Positions 7,123-54,336 of a stretch of DNA of 64,000 nt are shown here, one piece after another. The stretch is from a phage. The stretch is taken from sequence record PZ534512.1, one strand, 5' to 3'. Made by a program: the position numbers and the translations under genes. Below the pieces are notes generated by a model. It ran no database searches, was not told where the DNA came from, and worked only from the letters and a program-made list of their open reading frames with translations. Within the stretch, counting starts at the first letter, position 1. Every line of letters begins with the position of its first letter.

Positions 7123-8061
7123 ATGTACAATATTAAATGCCTGACCAAAAACGAACAAGCTGAAATTGTTAAGCTGTATTCAAGTGGTAATTACACCCAA
7201 CAGGAATTGGCTGATTGGCAAGGTGTATCGGTTGACACAATTCGTCGTGTTTTGAAAAATGCTGAAGAAGCTAAACGCTCTAAAGTTACTATTAGCGGTG
7301 ATATTACAATTAAAGTTAATAGCGATGCAGTTATTGCTCCAGTTGCTAAATCTGACATTATTTGGAATGCATCTAAAAAATTCATTTCAATTACTGTTGA
7401 CGGTGTAACTTATAACGCAACTCCTAATACTCATTCAAACTTCCAGGAAATTCTTAATCTGCTTGTAGCAGATAAGTTGGAAGAAGCGGCACAAAAAATT
7501 AATGTTCGTCGCGCTGTTGAAAAATATATTTCCGGCGATGTTCGAATTGAAGGCGGAAGCTTGTTCTATCAAAATATCGAATTACGGTCTGGTTTAGTTG
7601 ATCGTATTCTCGATTCGATGGAAAAAGGTGAAAACTTTGAATTTTATTTTCCGTTCTTGGAAAATCTGCTGGAAAACCCAAGCCAGAAAGCGGTATCTCG
7701 ACTCTTTGATTTCTTGGTAGCAAACGATATTGAAATTACAGAAGATGGTTACTTCTATGCTTGGAAAGTAGTTCGTGACAACTACTTTGACTGTCACTCA
7801 AACACCTTTGATAACAGTCCTGGTAAAGTAGTTAAAATGCCGCGTACTCGTGTGAATGACGATGATACACAAACTTGTTCTCGTGGTCTGCATGTGTGTT
7901 CTAAATCTTATATTCGTCACTTTGGCAGTTCAACCAGCCGAGTTGTAAAAGTTAAAGTACATCCACGTGATGTAGTATCAATTCCGATTGATTACAACGA
8001 TGCTAAAATGCGTACCTGCCAATACGAAGTAGTTGAAGACGTTACTGAACAATTTAAATAA
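7123..8061 (+). CDS. rIIB: rIIB protein
   Basis: 312 aa, directly downstream of rIIA as in T-even phages. Confidence 0.9.
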   Translation: MYNIKCLTKNEQAEIVKLYSSGNYTQQELADWQGVSVDTIRRVLKNAEEAKRSKVTISGDITIKVNSDAVIAPVAKSDIIWNASKKFISITVDGVTYNATPNTHSNFQEILNLLVADKLEEAAQKINVRRAVEKYISGDVRIEGGSLFYQNIELRSGLVDRILDSMEKGENFEFYFPFLENLLENPSQKAVSRLFDFLVANDIEITEDGYFYAWKVVRDNYFDCHSNTFDNSPGKVVKMPRTRVNDDDTQTCSRGLHVCSKSYIRHFGSSTSRVVKVKVHPRDVVSIPIDYNDAKMRTCQYEVVEDVTEQFK

Positions 8062-8093
8062 GGGCTTCGGCCCTTATCATATTAAGGAAAATT

Positions 8094-8288
8094 ATGTTAG
8101 GTTATCAAGCACGAGTAAAAGAAGAATACGATCAATTAATGCTCAAAATTAATGCACTGAGCAAATTTTTAGAAAGCACAAAGTTTCTAACGGTTAGTGC
8201 AGTTGAGCAAGAACTGCTGCTTTCACAGTTCATCTCAATGAAATCTTATGCTGAGTGTCTAGAGAAAAGAATCGCACAATTCAAATAA
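8094..8288 (+). CDS. hypothetical protein
   Basis: 64-aa ORF flanked by two GGGCTTCGGCCC hairpins. Confidence 0.45.
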   Translation: MLGYQARVKEEYDQLMLKINALSKFLESTKFLTVSAVEQELLLSQFISMKSYAECLEKRIAQFK

Positions 8289-8291
8289 AAT

Positions 8292-8317
8292 AAGGGCTTC
8301 GGCCCTTTTGTTTTAAG
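8292..8317 (+). terminator. intrinsic terminator (hairpin plus T-run)
   Basis: aagggcttcggccctt followed by ttgtttt. Confidence 0.6.
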
Positions 8318-8351
8318 AGAAATTATGATTCCGACATAAAGGAAAGTTTAA

Positions 8352-9434: not shown

Positions 9435-9499
9435 AAAAGTTGTTTACAAGACTGTTCTTCCGTGGTATTATTACTCTATCAACTACGGAGGAACAGAAA

Positions 9500-9613
9500 A
9501 TGAAAAAGATTATTAAAGCTATATGGAATGTAGTTATAATATTAATAGTTTTGAGTATATTCCCAATCGTTTTAATGATTGATGTATTAAACGCTTACTT
9601 TGGATTTATGTGA
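9500..9613 (+). CDS. small membrane peptide (37 aa)
   Basis: ATG 9500 preceded by ggagg RBS and a promoter-like sequence at 9439-9470; track ORF 9365-9613 is the same frame over-extended. Confidence 0.45.
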   Translation: MKKIIKAIWNVVIILIVLSIFPIVLMIDVLNAYFGFM

Positions 9614-16620: not shown

Positions 16621-19600
16621 TTATGCTAAACGAACGATATAGTTAAAAGCAATGTTTTTAACCGTGTTTTCTGTATTACCTGTACTATTTACAGTGATAG
16701 TATGACCATGCGAGCCAATTGCTACCGTGTGGGTATGAGCACCGATACCTACAGTATGGGTATGAGCACCAATACCTACTGTGTGAGCATGGTTACCTGT
16801 AGTGCTTGTAGTACCAGACCAAGTATGAGTATGAGCACCGTCTGAAGAAGTTTTGGCTATATTCGACCCTGCAGTAGCACCGTTCACGGTTCCAGTGAAT
16901 TTAGCGTTGGCGTTTGCACCTACACTATTATATCCGTCATAGAATATGTTATTGGGTATGCCGGCTTGTATCTGAGGACCTGAGCGCGCATGTTGGTGTG
17001 CACCAGCAGAACTCGTAGTACCGCTTACAGTATGAGAGTGGTTACCTGTGGTATTGCTAGTCTTAGTGCCATAGTCAAAGCTACTTGTCGTCTTAGTACC
17101 ATAATCAAAACTCGACGTAGTTTTAGTACCCAAGTCAGTACTTGAAGCCGATGCACTATGGCTATGAGCCTTAACACCATCGGCTTCTGCGCTTAATACA
17201 GCTCGACCACTTGGTTTACCTTTAATAGTTTGCCCGCGCATATCTGGAATTACGCCAGATGGGTAAGCCATAGCCAATTTTGGGTATGCAGACTTATCAA
17301 AAGTCTGGCCTTCCATAATAGCGTAACCGTCAGGAGGAGTATCCGTTGGCCATGGAATAGGAGCACCGATTGGGTAACTCGATACAATATCGGTTTTAAG
17401 TGATTCAATTGTACTGTTTAAATTAGCAAAATTGCCAGAACCACCTGTAATATTGCCGTCTGTACCTAAATAAACTGAACCACCAGCAGAAACACGCTTA
17501 GGAGATATAAAATCACCATTTTTGTTAAATTCCCAACCTAAATCCTTTATAATAGCGCCAGTCGAACCGCCATCGCCGCCTTCATGATAATGAACTCTGA
17601 AGTTACCGCCGTTAATTAGAGTTCCCAGAGAATAACAACTGTAAATTTTTGTTAAATTCCCAACCTAAATCCTTTATAATAGCGCCAGTCGAACCGCCAT
17701 CGCCGCCTTCATGATAATGAACTCTGAAGTTACCGCCGTTAATTAGAGTTCCCAGAGAATAACAACTGTTTCCTTGGACATATCGTTGTTTCAAAATAGG
17801 AACGTAAGTACTTGTATCTGTACGATTAATATTCATATAGAATGGAGCACGAACGTTTTCATTATTTTGTGAAGCAAAAGACCCTGCACCAGCCGGGCGA
17901 ACTGTGTCAGTACATTCAGCATCAATATAAGCTGCTTGTCCTACCTGCATACGGTAATTAGGAGAAATGCGACTATTACTAGTAACAACAACAAGTTTGG
18001 TATCGTTGTCCACAGTAATCATATTACCGCCAGCGCCATCATCGCCTAACGTAACAGAATGGCGCATTTGTACCATACCATTATTAAGACTAATACTAAG
18101 TGGGCGGAGATTACTTATTCCACCACTTTCACCGGCATCTTTAGGAGTCGGGATAATATGTAATGCTGTTTCTGAGCGACGGAAAATAGCACCGTATTCG
18201 GCATTCCAAATTCTTAATGCATCAGCAGTTCCACCAATTTTTACTTGTCCAGTAATAGAAGAACCACCTTGGACAAACAAACCATTAGACATGGTAACAT
18301 TACCGACTAAAGTGCTTAATCCATTAACTTTAAAACTTCCGTCAGTAATAATACTTCCTCTAGCATTAACTTGTCCATTGAACTGGGTTACAACAGGCCC
18401 AGTAGTTTCAGAGCCACTTGGAGCCACACGCTGTGAATAAAAATAATATCCTTGTCCATCAGCTACTTCAAAAACCGTTTCACGATTACGATCGCCAGAT
18501 GCGTTAAATGAATTACCCCATGCTTTAACAGTTACATAGCTTTTATTCTGACCAGCACGAGTACCGCCTTCCCACAAAATTTGCTTAGTGCCATCAATTG
18601 TAGTAGTTGGAGCGAATGTTAGCCCAGCAGTAGAATTATTAGCTGCTAAATATATGCCATTATATATTGAAAGCTGCTTAACAGATGTAATACCGCCATC
18701 AGCATAAAACATTACATTATTAGAGCCAGTTACCAATTTCAAAATACCCGGGTTAACTTCCATGCCTTCTTGAGTATTAATATTAGTTTTGCCTTTACCA
18801 CGGAAATAGTGGTTCATTTTTCCGCCTGAGTTATAGCCAATATGCGTCTGGCCGTCTCCAGCAGTGTTTTCATCAGCTTGTGTTTGAACCGATAAAAACG
18901 CGGCGTTGGTTCCAGGCATAATCCATGTTGTACCTTGGTCCTCGGAACGACCAAAAATCGCTTTACGGGTACTACGGAAACTATCAGGAGTAATAGATGC
19001 TAAAGAAAGACCACTAGCAACTAAATCATATACTCCAGTTTTTTTGTATGATAAGCCTGTTGATGCATCACCGATAACTATATAACATTCGCCCATTGCT
19101 CCAGCGGAGCCGTAGTTATTAATGTTTTCATCTGTTGTAATTGTACCAATTGCGAGTGAGCGTCGTAATACTAAAGCCCCATCATTACGAAGACCCATTT
19201 GTTTATTAACGGCTGTATTACCAGTCCACCAAGAAAGTTCATCACTTTTTCCGGTTTGCGCAGAAGCTAATTCATGATAAATTGTACCGCCTGATTTAGC
19301 TCGAACTTTACGAAGATAGTTTATACCATTTTCTTCGCCTGTTCCAGGATAAACATATTGAACTAATGATTGCGAATCGTATTGTCCAAATGCTTTTGTA
19401 TCTAAAATAATATTTTTAGTATTAATCTGAGGCGAAGTAATATTTCCAATAGCTGCAATATTTCCAGATGTAGTTATACTACCTCCTGATACTGCTAAAC
19501 CTCCACCGTCAACAGTAAATCCGCCGTCACGTCGAAACGTCCAATATTTCGAATCGCCAGATTCATTGATATAATGAATCTTCAACGAACCTTCAGAAAC

Positions 19601-20023
19601 TAAAGTACCTAATGAAAAAGTTCCATCTTTAAAGCGCTGTTTAATTATAGGATTATATTCAGATGTGGAAGTAGCTGAGCTTAAATCTACAAAAATTGGA
19701 GCTTTCGCAGTATGTTGACCGGACCAAGCCCCACTTCCAGTAGTACGATAATTAAACTCAATATATCCACCGCTTGCTACAATTTGCGGACCAATTAAAT
19801 TAAATTTTCCAGTCTGTGTATAATCACCAGTTTGAGTGATATTACCACTGATATTACCGCCAGTAGAAATGCTTAAATCGATGATATTTCCTGAATCATC
19901 TTTAGTAAAAATTGTTCTATCTTTTAAGTTTATAGCCAATTCACCTTCGGCTAATACTGAAGCAGCAGGACGTGCACCTGCGGTTTTGCTTCTTTTAAAT
20001 TGTATTTGTTTTAAAGTAGCCAT
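16621..20023 (-). pseudogene. 37: long tail fibre distal subunit gp37, reading frame interrupted by a 127-bp tandem duplication
   Basis: N-terminal 803-aa ORF (17612-20023) stops 10 codons into the second repeat copy; C-terminal part continues in the +1 frame to 16621 with His-box tip ...[39 protein letters not shown]; removing one copy gives one 1091-aa ORF. Confidence 0.85.
17518..17771. repeat. direct tandem duplication, 2 x 127 bp (125 bp identical plus 2-nt junction)
   Basis: 17518-17642 is identical to 17645-17769. Confidence 0.95.
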
Positions 20024-29101: not shown

Positions 29102-29132
29102 GTTTACATCCTTGTCCTTCCATGGTACTATA
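29102..29132 (+). promoter_or_regulatory. early promoter
   Basis: cacaaaacagtttacatccttgtccttccatggtactatacaactatc. Confidence 0.5.
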
Positions 29133-29174
29133 CAACTATCGGCAATACTGCTGATGATTAAAGAGGAAAATAAT

Positions 29175-29405
29175 ATGGCTAAAGTTGATATTGACATCGT
29201 TGATTTTGAATATATCGAAGAAATTATTCGTAATCGTTATCCTGAACTTAGCATCACAAGTATTCACGATGATCCCAATTATTGCAATTTTTCTATTGTC
29301 ATTGAAGGTCCTCTTGAAGACCTCACCCGCTTTATGGCTAATGAATACTGTGATGGCATGGATTCTGAAGACGCAGAATTTTACATGGGATTGATTGAAC
29401 AATAA
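29175..29405 (+). CDS. hypothetical protein
   Basis: ATG 29175 after aagaggaaaa RBS; track ORF 29112 over-extended. Confidence 0.55.
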
Positions 29406-30071: not shown

Positions 30072-30138
30072 AAATAATTGTTTACAACAGGGTAGTAGTG
30101 TGATACTATTACCCTATCAACTACATGAGGAGAATAAA

Positions 30139-36536: not shown

Positions 36537-38124
<1,588 letters not shown>

Positions 38125-38127
38125 GCT

Positions 38128-38180
38128 GTTTACAAGTCCCTCATGTTGTGTTATAGTAATCTTACTGACATAACATGAGG
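38128..38180 (+). promoter_or_regulatory. early promoter embedded in inverted repeat that includes the alc RBS
   Basis: gtttacaag, -10 tatagt; arms cctcatgtt / aacatgagg; near-identical copy at 53957-54009. Confidence 0.5.
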
Positions 38181-38188
38181 ACTTTATG

Positions 38189-38692
38189 ATGGATTTGCAG
38201 CTTATTACTACTGAAATGGTCGTTGAAGCATACGGTGATACTACAGATGGGATTTCTGTATTTAAAGGAAATCGTCGAGTTGGATATATCACCGATCTTA
38301 AGAAAGATTTAGCTAAGCAAGTCAAGCGGAAAACGACCATTAAAGAATATCGAAATCGTCGTCTTGAGCAAGCCCGTGATATGCTTCCTGATGCGGTTGA
38401 AGAGATGAAAGTCTTTTTAGAAAATCAACTCGCTAAGTATGATTGTGAAGTGTTCATTAATCAGACTCAACCTAATGTTCATATCAATAGCTGTAAATGC
38501 TATATTATCGTTAATCCTTTAACGGGAAAACATCGTCTTGGAATTAGTAATCCAAATCGTAGCGCATCGGATATGGCAGAAGATGTTGCGGCATGCTTTA
38601 AAATTTCTAAATCTCCGGCGGAACATCATATTTTAATTAACGGTCTTTCTCAAGACGATATTATAGAGGTTATTAAAACTTTATGCAATTAA
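38189..38692 (+). CDS. alc: Alc, inhibitor of host transcription on cytosine DNA
   Basis: 167 aa from ATG 38189; position after rnlA. Confidence 0.8.
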   Translation: MDLQLITTEMVVEAYGDTTDGISVFKGNRRVGYITDLKKDLAKQVKRKTTIKEYRNRRLEQARDMLPDAVEEMKVFLENQLAKYDCEVFINQTQPNVHINSCKCYIIVNPLTGKHRLGISNPNRSASDMAEDVAACFKISKSPAEHHILINGLSQDDIIEVIKTLCN

Positions 38693-41441: not shown

Positions 41442-41503
41442 TGGTTTACTTTACGGTAGAGTTGTGATATTATAGCTCTACCAAAACAAATGAGGAAATT
41501 GAA

Positions 41504-44985: not shown

Positions 44986-45062
44986 TCCAAAGATTGCATA
45001 AAGTTGTTTACAGTATAGTTCCTTTGTGATAGTATTATCTTACACAAACAAAGGAGAATAAA

Positions 45063-45395
45063 ATGAAAACGATTAATCTGAACGCTGCAGTTAAAACTAA
45101 ATGCTTCAATGGTAAATATAATGAAACTATGTGGTTCTTAATGGCAGTTGAAGGTGATATTATTGAAGTAGAAACAACAGAAGGTATGGGAACAGATTTC
45201 ACCTTTACAATTCAAGTTCATAATTTCTTTACTGGTTGGATTTATGAATTGAATACAGTAATCGTTGGAAAAATTGAACAAAATGAATTAGGCGAATGGC
45301 ATTATGTTACAGCTCGCCAACGTGCAGAACGCTTAATTGAGAAGATGAAAAAAGTTGGTAAACTTGACATGCAGCATTGGAAAGTAGTAAAATAA
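45063..45395 (+). CDS. hypothetical protein
   Basis: 110-aa ORF after promoter 45008-45040 and ggagaataaa RBS. Confidence 0.6.
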   Translation: MKTINLNAAVKTKCFNGKYNETMWFLMAVEGDIIEVETTEGMGTDFTFTIQVHNFFTGWIYELNTVIVGKIEQNELGEWHYVTARQRAERLIEKMKKVGKLDMQHWKVVK

Positions 45396-45462
45396 TTGTT
45401 TACTTTGGTACAGGATATGATATTATATACCTGTACCGCAATTAAACATCTTGGAGAATAAA

Positions 45463-45828
45463 ATGAACTACATCAACTTTGAACGTAAATATGTTTCTAA
45501 TGGTATTGCAGGTTCTATTGATACTATTTGCCTCTGGAAACATCAAAACGGATCAGTATGCGAAATTGAACAGTATATGACTCCTAACTACGTTTATATG
45601 CGATTTGAAAACGGTATCACGGTTTCAATCACGATGAAAGGTTCCAACTTCAAAATCGCTCTGGATGATGATTTCCGCCAACGCGATTTAGGGACTCATC
45701 CTTGCTGGAATGGTGCTAATCGTAAACTCTTAGTTAAAACTTGGATTCGTCATATTCTGAGTAACAAAGCTAAACCTGAGCACTTGGAAGCAATCTTTGA
45801 TGTAGTTCTTAACGAATTTGATATTTAA
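45463..45828 (+). CDS. hypothetical protein
   Basis: ATG 45463 after ggagaataaa. Confidence 0.55.
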   Translation: MNYINFERKYVSNGIAGSIDTICLWKHQNGSVCEIEQYMTPNYVYMRFENGITVSITMKGSNFKIALDDDFRQRDLGTHPCWNGANRKLLVKTWIRHILSNKAKPEHLEAIFDVVLNEFDI

Positions 45829-45870
45829 AAATAAAATGAGGGGCTTCGGCCCCTTACTGAGGAAAATATT

Positions 45871-49571: not shown

Positions 49572-49756
49572 AAGCTTACTTAGAAACAATTGTCGTGGCT
49601 CAAAAAGAAGGTGGAGATGTTTCTACTTCTGTATCACAAATCATGATTGAATTTATAGATGCATATGCTTATAATAAATTCACAGAAACTTTTGATGCTT
49701 ATGAAAAAGGTCCAAAGTTTGAAATATATCGTACTCTCTTACCAATAGATTATTAA
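49568..49756 (+). CDS. hypothetical protein
   Basis: 62-aa ORF followed by GGCCTTCGGGCC hairpin at 49755-49772. Confidence 0.5.
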   Translation: MKAYLETIVVAQKEGGDVSTSVSQIMIEFIDAYAYNKFTETFDAYEKGPKFEIYRTLLPIDY

Positions 49757-49777
49757 AGGCCTTCGGGCCTTTAATTT

Positions 49778-49785
49778 TATAAATA
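49778..49785 (+). promoter_or_regulatory. late promoter TATAAATA upstream of first alt-type gene
   Basis: exact tataaata. Confidence 0.5.
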
Positions 49786-49808
49786 GAATAAACACTAGAG
49801 AGGATATG

Positions 49809-51896
49809 ATGGAACTCATTACAGAATTATTTGACGAAGATACTACTCTTCCGATTACAAACTTAAATCCAAAGAAGAAAATACCACAAATTTTTTCAGT
49901 TCACGTTGATGATGCAATTGAACAACCAGGATTTCGTTTATGTACCTATACATCTGGAGGTGATACTAATCGCGATTTAAAGATGGGCGATAAAATGATG
50001 CATATTGTTCCTTTTACATTAACTGCTAAAGGTTCAATTGCTAAATTAAAAGGTCTTGGTCCAAGCCCAATTAATTATATCAATTCAGTTTTTACTGTTG
50101 CAATGCAAACAATGCGTCAGTATAAAATTGATGCCTGTATGCTCCGTATTCTTAAGTCTAAAACCGCTGGTCAAGCTCGACAAATTCAAGTTATTGCTGA
50201 TAGACTTATCCGTAGTCGTTCAGGTGGCAGATACGTCCTTCTTAAGGAACTCTGGGATTACGATAAAAAGTATGCATATATTCTTATACATCGCAAAAAT
50301 GTATCACTAGAAGACATTCCAGGAGTTCCAGAAATTAGTACCGAGCTCTTTACTAAAGTTGAATCGAAGGTCGGTGATGTTTATATCAATAAAGATACTG
50401 GAGCTCAAGTAACTAAAAATGAGGCAATTGCAGCATCTATTGCACAAGAAAATGATAAACGTTCTGACCAAGCTGTAATCGTTAAAGTTAAAATTTCCCG
50501 TAGAGCAATTGCGCAAAGTCAATCGTTAGAGTCTTCTAGATTTGAAAGTGAATTATTCCAGAAGTATGAATCTACTGCAGCTAATTTCAATAAACCTGCT
50601 ACCGCTCCTTTAATTCCCGAAGCAGAAGAAATGAAGCTTGGAATTAATTCATTAGCTTCTAAAACTAAGGCAGCAAAAATTATTGCTGAAGGAACTGCAG
50701 ATGAACTTCATTATGACTATAAATTCTTTTCAAAAAGTGAGGTTAATGAAGTTTCTGAAAAAATTAAAGATGTAATTCTTAATGCGATTAAAAATGAACC
50801 AACTACTTCAATAAAATGTTTAGAGAAATACGCAGCAGCTGTTAATCAACTCTTTGAAGAATATAAAGATAATTGGCTTGATAAACATAATAAAACTCGT
50901 AAAGGGCAGCCAGATGAAGTCTGGGAAGAAATAACTAAAAATGCCTGGAATGCAGCAAAAACTAAATTCCTCAAACGAATGATTTATAGCTTTTCTGGAA
51001 TTGGTGCTGGTCCAATGATTGATATTACTATTGCCCGTGATGGTTCTAAATATACTCCATCACAAAAGCGCGGCATTAGAGAATATTGTGGTTCAGGATA
51101 TACAGACATTAATAATCTTCTTTTAGGTCGTTACAATCCAGAACGATATGATGTAATGAGTGAAAAAGAAATTGAATCTGCTATAAATAATTTAGATTCA
51201 GCTTTTGAAAATGGTGACCGCATACCGGAAGGCATTACAGTTTATCGTGCTCAAAGTATGACTGCTCCTATATACGAAGCGCTAGTTAAAAATAAAGTGT
51301 TCTATTTCAGAAATTTTGTATCTACTTCTTTAACTCCTATCATTTTTGGGCGTTTTGGAATTACACATGCTGGTATTGGTCTTTTAGAACCAGAAGCTCG
51401 TAATGAATTAACAGTTGATAAAAATGAAGAAGGAATAACTATTAATCCAAACGAAATAAGAGCGTATAAAGAAAATCCTGAATACGTTAAAGTTCAAATA
51501 GGATGGGCAATTGACGGCGCGCATAAAGTTAATGTTGTATATCCAGGAAGTCTCGGAATAGCAACAGAAGCTGAAGTTATTCTACCGCGCGGATTGATGG
51601 TCAAAGTTAATAAAATAACTGATGCTTCTAATAATGACGGAACAACATCTAATAATACAAAACTCATTCAAGCTGAAGTTATGACCACAGAAGAACTCAC
51701 CGAATCAGTAATCTATGACGGAGACCATTTAATGGAAACTGGTGAATTGGTTACAATGACAGGTGATATAGAAGATAGAGTTGACTTTGCATCATTTGTT
51801 TCATCAAATGTTAAACAGAAAGTAGAATCATCTCTTGGAATTATTGCGTCTTGCATAGATATTACAAACATGCCTTACAAGTTCGTTCAAGGATAA
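49809..51896 (+). CDS. alt: Alt-family ADP-ribosyltransferase paralog 1
   Basis: 695 aa from ATG 49809; N-terminus MELITELFD; ART motifs YRAQS, FVSTSL, EAEVILPRG. Confidence 0.75.
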   Translation: MELITELFDEDTTLPITNLNPKKKIPQIFSVHVDDAIEQPGFRLCTYTSGGDTNRDLKMGDKMMHIVPFTLTAKGSIAKLKGLGPSPINYINSVFTVAMQTMRQYKIDACMLRILKSKTAGQARQIQVIADRLIRSRSGGRYVLLKELWDYDKKYAYILIHRKNVSLEDIPGVPEISTELFTKVESKVGDVYINKDTGAQVTKNEAIAASIAQENDKRSDQAVIVKVKISRRAIAQSQSLESSRFESELFQKYESTAANFNKPATAPLIPEAEEMKLGINSLASKTKAAKIIAEGTADELHYDYKFFSKSEVNEVSEKIKDVILNAIKNEPTTSIKCLEKYAAAVNQLFEEYKDNWLDKHNKTRKGQPDEVWEEITKNAWNAAKTKFLKRMIYSFSGIGAGPMIDITIARDGSKYTPSQKRGIREYCGSGYTDINNLLLGRYNPERYDVMSEKEIESAINNLDSAFENGDRIPEGITVYRAQSMTAPIYEALVKNKVFYFRNFVSTSLTPIIFGRFGITHAGIGLLEPEARNELTVDKNEEGITINPNEIRAYKENPEYVKVQIGWAIDGAHKVNVVYPGSLGIATEAEVILPRGLMVKVNKITDASNNDGTTSNNTKLIQAEVMTTEELTESVIYDGDHLMETGELVTMTGDIEDRVDFASFVSSNVKQKVESSLGIIASCIDITNMPYKFVQG

Positions 51897-51899
51897 ATC

Positions 51900-53957
51900 A
51901 TGGAACTTATTACAGAATTATTTGACGGCGCTTCGGCGCCGGTTGTTAACTTAAATCCTAAGCATAAAATACCACAAATTTTTGCTATCCAAGCCGGCGA
52001 AGAAAGCGTGCTTCCTGGATTTAGATTTTGTACATACACCTCTGGTGGTGATACAAATAAAAACGTTAAGCCAGGCGATAAAATGATGCATATCGTAATG
52101 ATAGGTGTCAATGAGAAACTATCATTAGTTAAGCTTAAAAACTTGGGTGGAAATCCAATTGGTGTCATTAATGCCGTTTTTGATACTGCTCTTCAAACAA
52201 TGAAACAGTATAAAATCGACGCATGCCTATTCCGCGTACTAAAGAGTAAAACAAATGGCGCAGCTCGTCAAATGCAAGTTATTGCTGACCGTTTAGTACG
52301 TACTAAGGGAGCAGGTCGATATGTTCTCTTAAAGGAAATCTGGGACTATGATAAGAAATATGCATATATTATGGTTTACCGTAAAAATGCCAATTTAGAA
52401 GACATTCCAGGTGTACCTCCTATTTCAACTGAGTTATTCACAAAAGTTGAATCAAAGGTTGGTGATGTTTATGTAGACGTTAAAACAGGTAATGCTGTTC
52501 CTAAAGCTGTCGCTGTTGCTGCTTCTATTGCTTTAGAAAATGATAAGCGCACTGATCAAGCTGTTATTCAGAAAACTAAAATTAGTCGTCGATTAGCAGC
52601 ACAAGCTCAATATTCTACTGTTGATGCTTCACTTCAGGGTGATAGCTTCGCTGCCAAGAAATATCAAGAGTTTGAATCTAAAGTTCCGGTATATAAAGCA
52701 GAAGGACCAATGAACTCTGGCGTTATCCAGATTGGTTCAAACTTCAGCAAAGGAGCTATCGGTGGTATGAGAAGTGCTTCTCGTTTTAAATCTAATGATT
52801 ATGAACTAGAAAGTTTCCGAAATCATATTGCATTGACCCATGCACGTTTACGCGATCCATCTATCAAGCTGCAGAGCGATATAACATATCAAGGTTCTCA
52901 AGAATATTTAAAGAATAAAGAATTCTTTGATTATAAAACTGATAAAATTTTAAGCGATCTTGCTGACATTAATATTTCTAATAGCTTTGATGTTATTAAG
53001 AAAATTATCAATGATTTAGTTAAAGATTCTAAAGCTACATCAGATGAAAAGACAGCTATTATTCAATTTGTAATGAATGGCATTTATAAATTGATTAATG
53101 AATCTGCTGCTCAGGCATATGAATATGCAAGTACTGAAGTAACTCCAAAAGGACTGACTCAGGCTGAGTCTGATGTAATTGAAGATTATTGTGCAGATTC
53201 ATATGTTGAAATGAACTCGTTCCTCTTGGGTAAACCAGATTCTACCCGTGAAGAATACATGGAACGAGCTATTAAACACATCGAGACGCTGGATTCTGCA
53301 TTCGCCAAAGGATCAGTTCTTCCTCCGGGAACTACGCTTTATCGTGGACAAGAAGTTACTTTTAAAACTTTACGCCATAATATTGAAAATAAAATGTTCT
53401 ATTTCAAGAACTTCGTATCAACATCGCTTAAACCAAATATCTTCGGTGAGCATGGTAAAAACTATATGGCTCTAGATGATTCCGGCGCAGTATTTTCTGG
53501 TGAAGGAGAAGGTTCTGTTGATGCCGAAGATTTAATGCATATGGGTAGTCATTCTGCATATGCTAATGAAGATGCTGAAACTAGCGTAGGTATGGTAATT
53601 AAAGGGGCTGAACGAATCAAAGTTATCGTTCCAGGTCATTTATCAGGATTTCCATCAGAAGCTGAAGTTATTCTACCACGTGGAATTTTGTTGAAGATTA
53701 ATAAAGTAAGCACGTACATGATGAAAGAAACTGCTTATAACAAGTATCTAATCGAAGGCACAATCGTTCCTCCTTCTGAACAATTAGAAGAATCGGTATA
53801 TGATGGCGATCATCTAATGGAAACTGGCGAAGTTCGTCCAATGGCTGGGTTTAATCAATTCCTTGTAGAAGAATCAAAAGAAGAGGAAAACGAAGTTTCT
53901 CAAATCTTGGCTTCTTTGGTTAACATCAACGGAATGTCTAAAAAGTTCAAGATGTAG
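51900..53957 (+). CDS. alt: Alt-family ADP-ribosyltransferase paralog 2
   Basis: 685 aa; N-terminus MELITELFD; ART motifs YRGQE, FVSTSL, EAEVILPRG. Confidence 0.75.
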   Translation: MELITELFDGASAPVVNLNPKHKIPQIFAIQAGEESVLPGFRFCTYTSGGDTNKNVKPGDKMMHIVMIGVNEKLSLVKLKNLGGNPIGVINAVFDTALQTMKQYKIDACLFRVLKSKTNGAARQMQVIADRLVRTKGAGRYVLLKEIWDYDKKYAYIMVYRKNANLEDIPGVPPISTELFTKVESKVGDVYVDVKTGNAVPKAVAVAASIALENDKRTDQAVIQKTKISRRLAAQAQYSTVDASLQGDSFAAKKYQEFESKVPVYKAEGPMNSGVIQIGSNFSKGAIGGMRSASRFKSNDYELESFRNHIALTHARLRDPSIKLQSDITYQGSQEYLKNKEFFDYKTDKILSDLADINISNSFDVIKKIINDLVKDSKATSDEKTAIIQFVMNGIYKLINESAAQAYEYASTEVTPKGLTQAESDVIEDYCADSYVEMNSFLLGKPDSTREEYMERAIKHIETLDSAFAKGSVLPPGTTLYRGQEVTFKTLRHNIENKMFYFKNFVSTSLKPNIFGEHGKNYMALDDSGAVFSGEGEGSVDAEDLMHMGSHSAYANEDAETSVGMVIKGAERIKVIVPGHLSGFPSEAEVILPRGILLKINKVSTYMMKETAYNKYLIEGTIVPPSEQLEESVYDGDHLMETGEVRPMAGFNQFLVEESKEEENEVSQILASLVNINGMSKKFKM

Positions 53958-54009
53958 TTTACAAGTCCCTCGTGTTGTGTTATAGTAGTCTTACTGACAT
54001 AACATGAGG
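53957..54009 (+). promoter_or_regulatory. early promoter embedded in inverted repeat (copy of element at 38128)
   Basis: gtttacaagtccctcgtgttgtgttatagtagtcttactgacataacatgagg. Confidence 0.5.
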
Positions 54010-54017
54010 AACACAAA

Positions 54018-54308
54018 ATGAAATCTTCTTTGCGCTTTTTGGGTCAAGAACTTGTAGTTGAAGGCGTTATTCCTGCTGATAATGCTTTTAATGAAGCAGT
54101 TTATGATGAATTTATCAAAATTTTTGGAACAGATAAAAAGTTCGGAATTTTTCCTTCTGAAAATTTTTCAAAGCCAGAACAGACTGAAAGCATTTTCCAA
54201 GGTGTAGTAACAGGTAAATTTGAGTCAGAAGCTCCGGTAAAAATTGAAGTTTATATTGAAGACAGTTTAGTTGCTTCAGTTGCTGCTTTTATTTCATTCC
54301 GTAAATAA
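54018..54308 (+). CDS. hypothetical protein
   Basis: 96-aa ORF. Confidence 0.55.
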   Translation: MKSSLRFLGQELVVEGVIPADNAFNEAVYDEFIKIFGTDKKFGIFPSENFSKPEQTESIFQGVVTGKFESEAPVKIEVYIEDSLVASVAAFISFRK

Positions 54309-54314
54309 AAATAT

Positions 54315-54332
54315 GGGGACCTTTCGGTCCCC
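54315..54332. terminator. bidirectional hairpin between convergent genes
   Basis: ggggacctttcggtcccc between + ORF end 54308 and gene 54 stop 54337. Confidence 0.5.
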
Positions 54333-54336
54333 ATTG

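Follow-up and report, generated by a model that had tools for sequence, protein, structure and literature searches.

Two copies of an early promoter embedded in a hairpin predicted to mask the ribosome-binding sites of alc and alt.-3 in a T4-like phage

In the 64,000 nucleotides of phage DNA analyzed here (sequence record PZ534512.1, below called the window), alc and alt.-3 are each preceded by a copy of the same 54-nt cassette. The cassette combines an early promoter with the arms of a long predicted RNA hairpin, and the 3' arm of this hairpin ends on the ribosome-binding site (the SD). RNA folding and the covariation of the arms across T4-like genera point to a model in which the hairpin lets alc and alt.-3 be translated only from RNA that starts at their own early promoters. 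We put the probability of this model at roughly 0.6.

The window stems from a Tequatrovirus (T4-like), with 94-98% identity to genomes of that genus. Early transcription runs along the + strand, in the order nrdB, denA, rnlA, alc, pseT.3 ... gene 30, alt.1 and alt. A second alt paralog and alt.-3 follow alt, and the convergent late genes 54 and 48 come next. The features that matter for the argument are the following:

36946-36973, + strand: putative middle-type promoter 5' of rnlA, read from the sequence only (MotA-box-like gaTGCTTcc, 13 nt, TGgTACTAT)
37000-38124, + strand: rnlA (RNA ligase 1), the cistron 5' of copy 1, stop codon 38122-38124
38128-38181, + strand: cassette copy 1, separating the end of rnlA from alc
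38129-38134, + strand: -35 hexamer TTTACA of copy 1 (T4 early-promoter type GTTTACA), from the promoter scan
38134-38158, + strand: 5' arm of copy 1, comprising promoter spacer and -10 hexamer, 5' of the predicted start
38139-38142, + strand: anti-SD CCUC in the 5' arm of copy 1
38149-38157, + strand: extended -10 TGtTATAGT of copy 1 (-10 hexamer 38152-38157)
38163-38184, + strand: 3' arm of copy 1, the 5'UTR of the promoter's own transcript, including GAGG
38189-38692, + strand: alc, inhibitor of host transcription (phrog_1253, E = 3e-82), with an alternative ATG at 38186
49755-49785, + strand: terminator-like hairpin (49755-49772), then late-promoter motif TATAAATA (49778-49785), 5' of alt
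49806-53957, + strand: two tandem alt paralogs (49806-51896 and 51900-53957), the cistrons 5' of copy 2
53957-54010, + strand: cassette copy 2, separating the second alt paralog (stop codon 53955-53957) from alt.-3
53958-53963 and 53981-53986, + strand: -35 and -10 of the copy 2 promoter, from the promoter scan
53965-54012, + strand: predicted hairpin of copy 2 (53965-53981 with 53996-54012; apical stem 53984-53987 with 53992-53995)
54018-54308, + strand: alt.-3, a conserved 96-aa protein with no assigned function (phrog_1739)
54313-54334, no strand assigned: bidirectional terminator-like hairpin between alt.-3 and the convergent late gene 54

Both alt (ADP-ribosyltransferase) paralogs are full-length and are about 72-78% identical in repeated stretches; the T4 counterpart of the second one consists only of the remnants alt.-1 and alt.-2. 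A minus-strand ORF that overlaps the first cassette (38029-38340) was taken as a mechanical ORF.

An earlier, sequence-only reading of this DNA had noted a repeat upstream of alc and about 16 kb downstream. The repeat is real, and 38128-38181 and 53957-54010 agree at 52 of 54 positions, so that the three mismatches counted earlier come down to two. Both are A/G differences, one in the left arm (38143 vs 53972) and one in the loop (38159 vs 53988). At a tolerance of up to three mismatches, the window has two occurrences of the 54-mer and 100 dinucleotide-preserving shuffles have none, and the remaining pairs of early promoters in the window are only 60-79% alike. The GTTTACA and tatagt promoter elements that had been recognized are found by a promoter scan as well, which returns TTTACA-17 nt-TATAGT with a TG extended -10 in both copies. 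Both upstream stop codons abut GTTTAC. From the promoter geometry, we infer transcription starts at about A38164 in copy 1 and about 53993 in copy 2, which would lie inside the apical stem-loop and about 22-25 nt before the ATG. The 1989 work of Liebig and Rueger on T4 early promoters reportedly may discuss dyad symmetries. The GAGG of the right arm lies at 38177-38180 and 54006-54009, as the sequence-only reading had it, at a distance of 5 or 8 nt from the ATG of alc (38186 or 38189) and of 8 nt from that of alt.-3 (54018). The cassette is not a middle promoter: its -35 element is GTTTACA, a MotA box is absent, and Table 1 of Hinton 2010 contains no middle promoter at alc or alt.-3. The terminator scan made no call at either cassette, where a U tract is lacking, and an Rfam search returned chance-level matches only, far under the gathering scores.

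The arms proposed earlier, cctcatgtt and aacatgagg, do exist, but they are merely the core of a predicted helix of about 22 bp that spans the promoter spacer, the -10 hexamer and the 5'UTR. In copy 1, positions 38134-38152 pair with 38167-38184, and 38155-38158 form the apical stem with 38163-38166. The predicted fold energies are -24.8 kcal/mol for copy 1 and -23.0 kcal/mol for copy 2 (z = -4.7 and -4.1), and not one of 200 shuffles folds equally well. Folded from the predicted start onwards, the RNA shows no significant structure (z = +0.8 and +1.4). Folding of both contexts, a check that the sequence-only reading had named, places the SD in a helix in read-through RNA and leaves it freer in promoter-initiated RNA: the SD is predicted to be unpaired with a probability of 0.008 at alc and 0.001 at alt.-3 in the former, and of 0.61-0.71 at alc and 0.375 at alt.-3 in the latter. 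The AUG is predicted to be mostly unpaired even when the SD is paired, which counts against masking. The earlier proposal that read-through RNA hides the SD, and that RNA from the internal promoter, without the left arm, exposes it, is in line with these predictions and, more strongly, with the covariation of the arms described below; folding in vivo and an effect on translation are what we infer from them.

A 101-nt query around copy 1 hits 999 places in 500 phage records, all of them close relatives of T4, indicating two copies per genome; alc itself is carried by about 1100 phages. In T4 itself, the cassettes lie at 136283-136336(c) and 123040-123093(c) and are identical at 53 of 54 positions; the sole difference, G>A at position 40 of copy 2, turns a G.U into an A-U pair. 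Across the genus, both loci share one consensus 54-mer. The difference between cat and cgt in the arms had been read as a change in the second copy that preserves pairing. Pairing is indeed kept, as A-U or as G.U, but G is the consensus of both loci, and it is the A at 38143 in the alc copy of this phage that is derived, the G of the G.U pair being the common and ancestral state. Within the genus, variation was assessed on about 30 sequences, against about 1000 copies in GenBank phages; related IMG/VR loci with Alc and with Alt.-3 contributed five each, and a metagenome scan eight. A loose IMG/VR scan with GTTTAC-N16-TGTTATAGT gave 120 chance matches, the element itself not among them.

Most arm variants in these roughly 30 sequences maintain or strengthen RNA pairing through G.U or A-U. 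Changes that keep pairing include C>T at position 11, C>T at position 15 (three occurrences, giving U.G), G or A at position 16 opposite U, and T>C at position 44, which converts G.U to G-C. The alc leader of Shigella phage ESh36 (an UNVERIFIED record) has GAGGGGC in place of GAGGAC (A>GG); the added G pairs with a C that is otherwise bulged in the left arm, and the ribosome-binding site becomes longer. The left arm also carries C>T and T>C changes. The few variants that break pairs fall at the outer base of the stem (positions 9, 10 and 12) and at one internal site in an unverified record. The tolerance of G.U pairs speaks for the + strand RNA, and against a DNA palindrome, as the target of selection.

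Comparison of the rnlA-alc intergenic regions of twelve further genera shows that eight of them keep the layout with different arm sequences, which makes nine genera with Tequatrovirus (Tequatro-, Gelderland-, Karam-, Jiaoda-, Dhaka-, Braga-, Marfa-, Winkler- and Roskildevirus). Common to them are GTTTACA, an anti-SD (CUCC or CCUC) immediately after it, the -10 hexamer and a 3' arm that ends on the SD. The arms read TCTCCGTTT/AAACGGAGA in Gelderlandvirus, TCTCCATTTGGTTGTGT/ACACTAACCAAATGGAGA in Karamvirus, TCCTCATCAG/CTGATGAGGA in Jiaodavirus, CCCTCTCGTTTTTG/CAAAAACGAGAGG in Bragavirus and CCTCGTTTGTT/ACAAACGAGG in Marfavirus, and are similar in Dhaka-, Winkler- and Roskildevirus. In an alignment-free comparison of the spacer of each genus with its own 5'UTR and with those of the other genera, the mean duplex energy is -19.3 kcal/mol for cognate and -10.5 kcal/mol for non-cognate combinations; none of 20000 permutations is as good, a result inflated by close relatives among the genera (Dhaka/Roskilde, Gelderland/Karam). 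Spacer positions 9-16 (numbered from the G of GTTTAC) form pairs in eight to nine of the nine genera, with two to four types of pair at seven of the eight positions and invariably C-G at position 12, in a table that is anchored on the -35 hexamer and biased towards pairing by its use of each sequence's own minimum-energy fold. RNAalifold predicted no pairs on a MAFFT alignment of the nine genera, because the right arms are out of register in that alignment. The alc cassette is ancient.

Masking of the SD at alc was not found in four of the twelve compared genera. In Mosigvirus, there is just a small hairpin inside the spacer; the Kanagawavirus hairpin extends across the -10 hexamer without involving the SD; the rnlA-alc gap of Gaprivervirus contains an additional Alc-like ORF; and the alc leader of Acajnonavirus shows nothing comparable. 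These four genera indicate that the mask is common but dispensable. In the Gaprivervirus phage vB_EcoM_VR26, a 77-aa ORF annotated as 'similar to T4 Alc' (157-390 of the compared locus) replaces the cassette; it appears to be a partial duplication of alc.

The alt.-3 genes of Gelderland-, Karam-, Jiaoda-, Dhaka- and Mosigvirus follow an ordinary early promoter, with a short local hairpin of the CACAAGGATGTG type in its spacer and an unmasked SD. This marks the second cassette as a genus-specific copy of the alc cassette. Most parsimoniously, a copy of the alc cassette, from the -35 element up to and including the SD, overwrote the promoter that the Tequatrovirus ancestor had at alt.-3. Since alt.-3 works unmasked outside Tequatrovirus, the second copy may be a neutral by-product of this copying. 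The sequence-only reading had also suggested that the two copies, as direct repeats, could mediate deletion or duplication of the block from alc to alt. In T4, 54 bp of homology suffices for recombination, and patches below 50 bp have been cited (PMC2839356). Physically possible as such events are, they are unsupported, with both copies retained in all of about 500 records. The 15.8-kb block between the copies carries DNA ligase and other conserved genes, and gp31 by synteny. A duplication of 15.8 kb would exceed the terminal redundancy of T4. Given the conserved genes in the block and the presence of both copies in all sampled genomes, a viable deletion or duplication is unlikely, and a past transfer of the cassette from alc to alt.-3 is the better explanation of the repeat.

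The cassette combines the principle of a well-known group of T4 hairpins with the layout of another class of element, an early promoter replacing the late one. SD-sequestering hairpins with an internal promoter are experimentally established for T4 e (lysozyme), soc, 49 and I-TevI (PMC3014915), and Aeh1 mobE and T4 segB are further cases (Uzan and Miller 2010, PMC3014915). As in e, soc, 49 and I-TevI, the SD lies in the 3' arm and the 5' arm lies upstream of the predicted start of the internal promoter, long transcripts would be masked and short ones translatable (here by prediction), and the structure is kept in related phages (here in nine genera at alc, with covarying arms). Unlike in those genes, where the internal promoter is late (TATAAATA), it is here an early sigma-70 promoter (TTTACA-17-TGtTATAGT); the timing is thereby inverted, from late-only to early-only, so that we regard the cassette as a variant and not as a strict member of the group. 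Other differences are that the 5' arm consists here of the entire promoter spacer plus the -10 hexamer, and that the AUG is outside the helix. Neither alc nor alt.-3 is among the cases in the 2010 review (PMC3014915), and an earlier mention elsewhere is possible. As the underlying principle is textbook T4 biology, the advance is incremental.

The layout is that of PeSL (promoter-early stem-loop) cassettes of T4-like phages (Arbiol et al. 2010, PMC2839356; Comeau et al. 2014, PMC4122927), whose early-promoter consensus in PST/T4 is TTTACW-N17-TAYWAT. The stem-loop of PeSLs has been described in five positions, including between -35 and -10 and overlapping -10 (PMC2839356). Like PeSLs, our cassettes are intergenic, with stop codon, sigma-70-like early promoter, stem-loop, ribosome-binding site and ATG; their stem covers spacer and -10 hexamer, and the element is repeated within the genome in copies similar enough to recombine. 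Whereas PeSLs are numerous and clustered in hyperplastic regions, adjacent to insertions and deletions, there are here exactly two copies per genome at conserved syntenic loci, 96-100% identical, 13-16 kb apart and flanking essential genes. The absence of a U tract and a stem that ends on the ribosome-binding site also set them apart. The PeSL papers treat the stem-loop as a terminator or attenuator and as a recombination substrate, with no mention of translation or ribosomes (PMC2839356, PMC4122927).

The PeSL precedent raises the question of whether the stem-loop terminates or attenuates rnlA or alt transcription, the SD lying in the stem only incidentally. The PeSL order of elements, with the stem-loop over the -10 hexamer, is matched, and one PeSL stem-loop cut lacZ expression like a strong terminator (PMC2839356). 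Moreover, at Kanagawavirus alc and at the window promoters at 30081, 41445 and 45399, the hairpin extends over the -10 hexamer but does not include the ribosome-binding site. However, the sequence 3' of the helix is A-rich and without a U tract in every genus, and the terminator scan was negative at both cassettes; an intrinsic terminator is rejected for lack of the U tract. Attenuation also leaves unexplained why the 3' arm always ends on the SD, and why the anti-SD has a fixed position in the spacer in nine genera, and we consider it improbable. To about the same degree, we doubt that the helix serves RNA processing or stability, as a site for RNase III or another double-strand-specific nuclease, or as a barrier to 3'-exonucleases that stabilizes cleaved rnlA and alt messages. 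The helix sits exactly at the cistron boundary, and in Tequatro-, Karam- and Winklervirus it has 17-22 bp with few defects, a length compatible with RNase III. Yet Gelderland-, Jiaoda-, Dhaka-, Braga- and Roskildevirus have only 8-13 contiguous pairs around the SD, which is short for RNase III, and it is the masking of the ribosome-binding site that is conserved, not the length of the helix.

A further explanation, which we rate slightly lower still, dispenses with an RNA function at the second copy or at both, and sees in them a recent ectopic copy, gene conversion or a DNA-level palindrome for protein binding or recombination. The ordinary promoter and free ribosome-binding site of alt.-3 outside Tequatrovirus fit this explanation, as do the documented role of PeSL pairs as recombination substrates (PMC2839356) and the conservation of the loop (-10 hexamer and start region), which a promoter role alone would predict. 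Against it speak the covariation of the arms across genera at alc, polymorphisms of the G.U-tolerated kind, which fit RNA pairing and not a DNA palindrome, and the intactness of both copies in about 500 genomes. For the alt.-3 copy alone, a neutral or DNA-level repeat is plausible.

There are candidate sources of read-through RNA at both loci. At copy 1, the putative middle-type promoter 5' of rnlA, identified from its similarity to the MotA-box consensus (PMC2988021), is a likely source; this promoter is absent from Table 1 of Hinton 2010 for T4. At copy 2, the late-promoter motif 5' of alt marks a likely source of late read-through RNA, and T4 omics data show that alt behaves as a late gene (PMC9697503). 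The terminator scan predicts no terminator between the rnlA and alt units and the cassettes. The upstream stop codons lie 9-10 nt 5' of the helix base, so that, judging by the size of the ribosome footprint, a terminating ribosome should miss the core pairing of anti-SD and SD.

Together, these data suggest a model for the two loci. Each cassette would be a T4 early promoter of the sigma-70 type built into an RNA hairpin, with the spacer and -10 region of the promoter as the 5' arm, the anti-SD just after the -35 element, and the 5'UTR with the SD as the 3' arm. RNA made from the cassette promoter would contain the 3' arm alone and be translatable. RNA entering from upstream, middle-mode RNA via rnlA for alc and late RNA via alt for alt.-3, would contain both arms, fold and hide its SD. 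In this manner, alc and alt.-3 would depend on their own early promoters for translation, and translation would end when early promoters are shut off, even though transcription through the genes continues. The cassette might thus be viewed as a translational insulator, placed where a later-class transcription unit meets an early gene.

The 3' end of alc overlaps the start of pseT.3 (i-spanin) by 10 nt (38683-38692), which suggests translational coupling. A late block of alc translation could then affect the coupled downstream gene, and this counts against the masking model. If alc is masked in late read-through RNA, spanin initiation would need to be independent of alc translation.

A crude scan of the window and five other genera finds the SD paired to a segment upstream of the start at 14 of 34 early-type promoters, among them those at 9442 and 45006 of the window, the latter with orthologues in four genera. 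By this count, the alc/alt.-3 pair is the clearest instance of a recurrent design, and not a singular case. Cassettes of note in the window lie at 9442-9502, 29102-29177 and 45006-45065; the last stands before a 110-aa ORF at 45063, and its orthologues in Melville, Pet-CM3-4, KPV15 and O157 typing phage 3 are built in the same way. The early-type promoters at 30081-30116, 41445-41483 and 45399-45440 have strong hairpins over the -10 and start region that leave the ribosome-binding site free, and form a PeSL-like class with no translational mask. A terminator-like hairpin, GGCCTTCGGGCC / GGGCTTCGGCCC with a T-rich tail, recurs at 2775-2808, 8043-8090, 8275-8322, 45822-45852 and 49752-49785, and the last of these copies is immediately followed by the late promoter TATAAATA. 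The window also contains a perfect 127-bp tandem duplication (17518-17769, two copies, 100% identity). Its unit length is not a multiple of 3, and the repeated stretch includes the 3' end of a minus-strand ORF of 803 aa (17612-20023, stop at 17612). This may be a genuine frameshifting duplication within a large late gene; otherwise, it is an artefact of the assembly.

If the masking model is right, Alc (the host-transcription terminator) and similar early proteins would be controlled beyond promoter shut-off and RegB cleavage, by translational silencing of all RNA that enters from later-class units. PeSL 'stem-loops' would, at least in part, have to be reinterpreted as translational masks instead of terminators. 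The transfer from alc to alt.-3 is a clean and datable case of a regulatory cassette transplanted within a phage genome. For annotation, a testable rule follows: an anti-ribosome-site sequence is to be looked for directly 3' of the -35 hexamer. We suggest tentatively, and with a good deal less assurance than for the two cassettes themselves, that an anti-SD in the spacer of early promoters is a general, conserved design of T4-like phages that makes the translation of selected early genes strictly dependent on their own promoters. If it is general, it would explain why some early proteins cease to be made once early promoters are shut off, even as middle and late transcription runs on through their genes. 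As an early-only gate, it would complement RegB cleavage and be the mirror image of the late-only gate of e, soc and 49.
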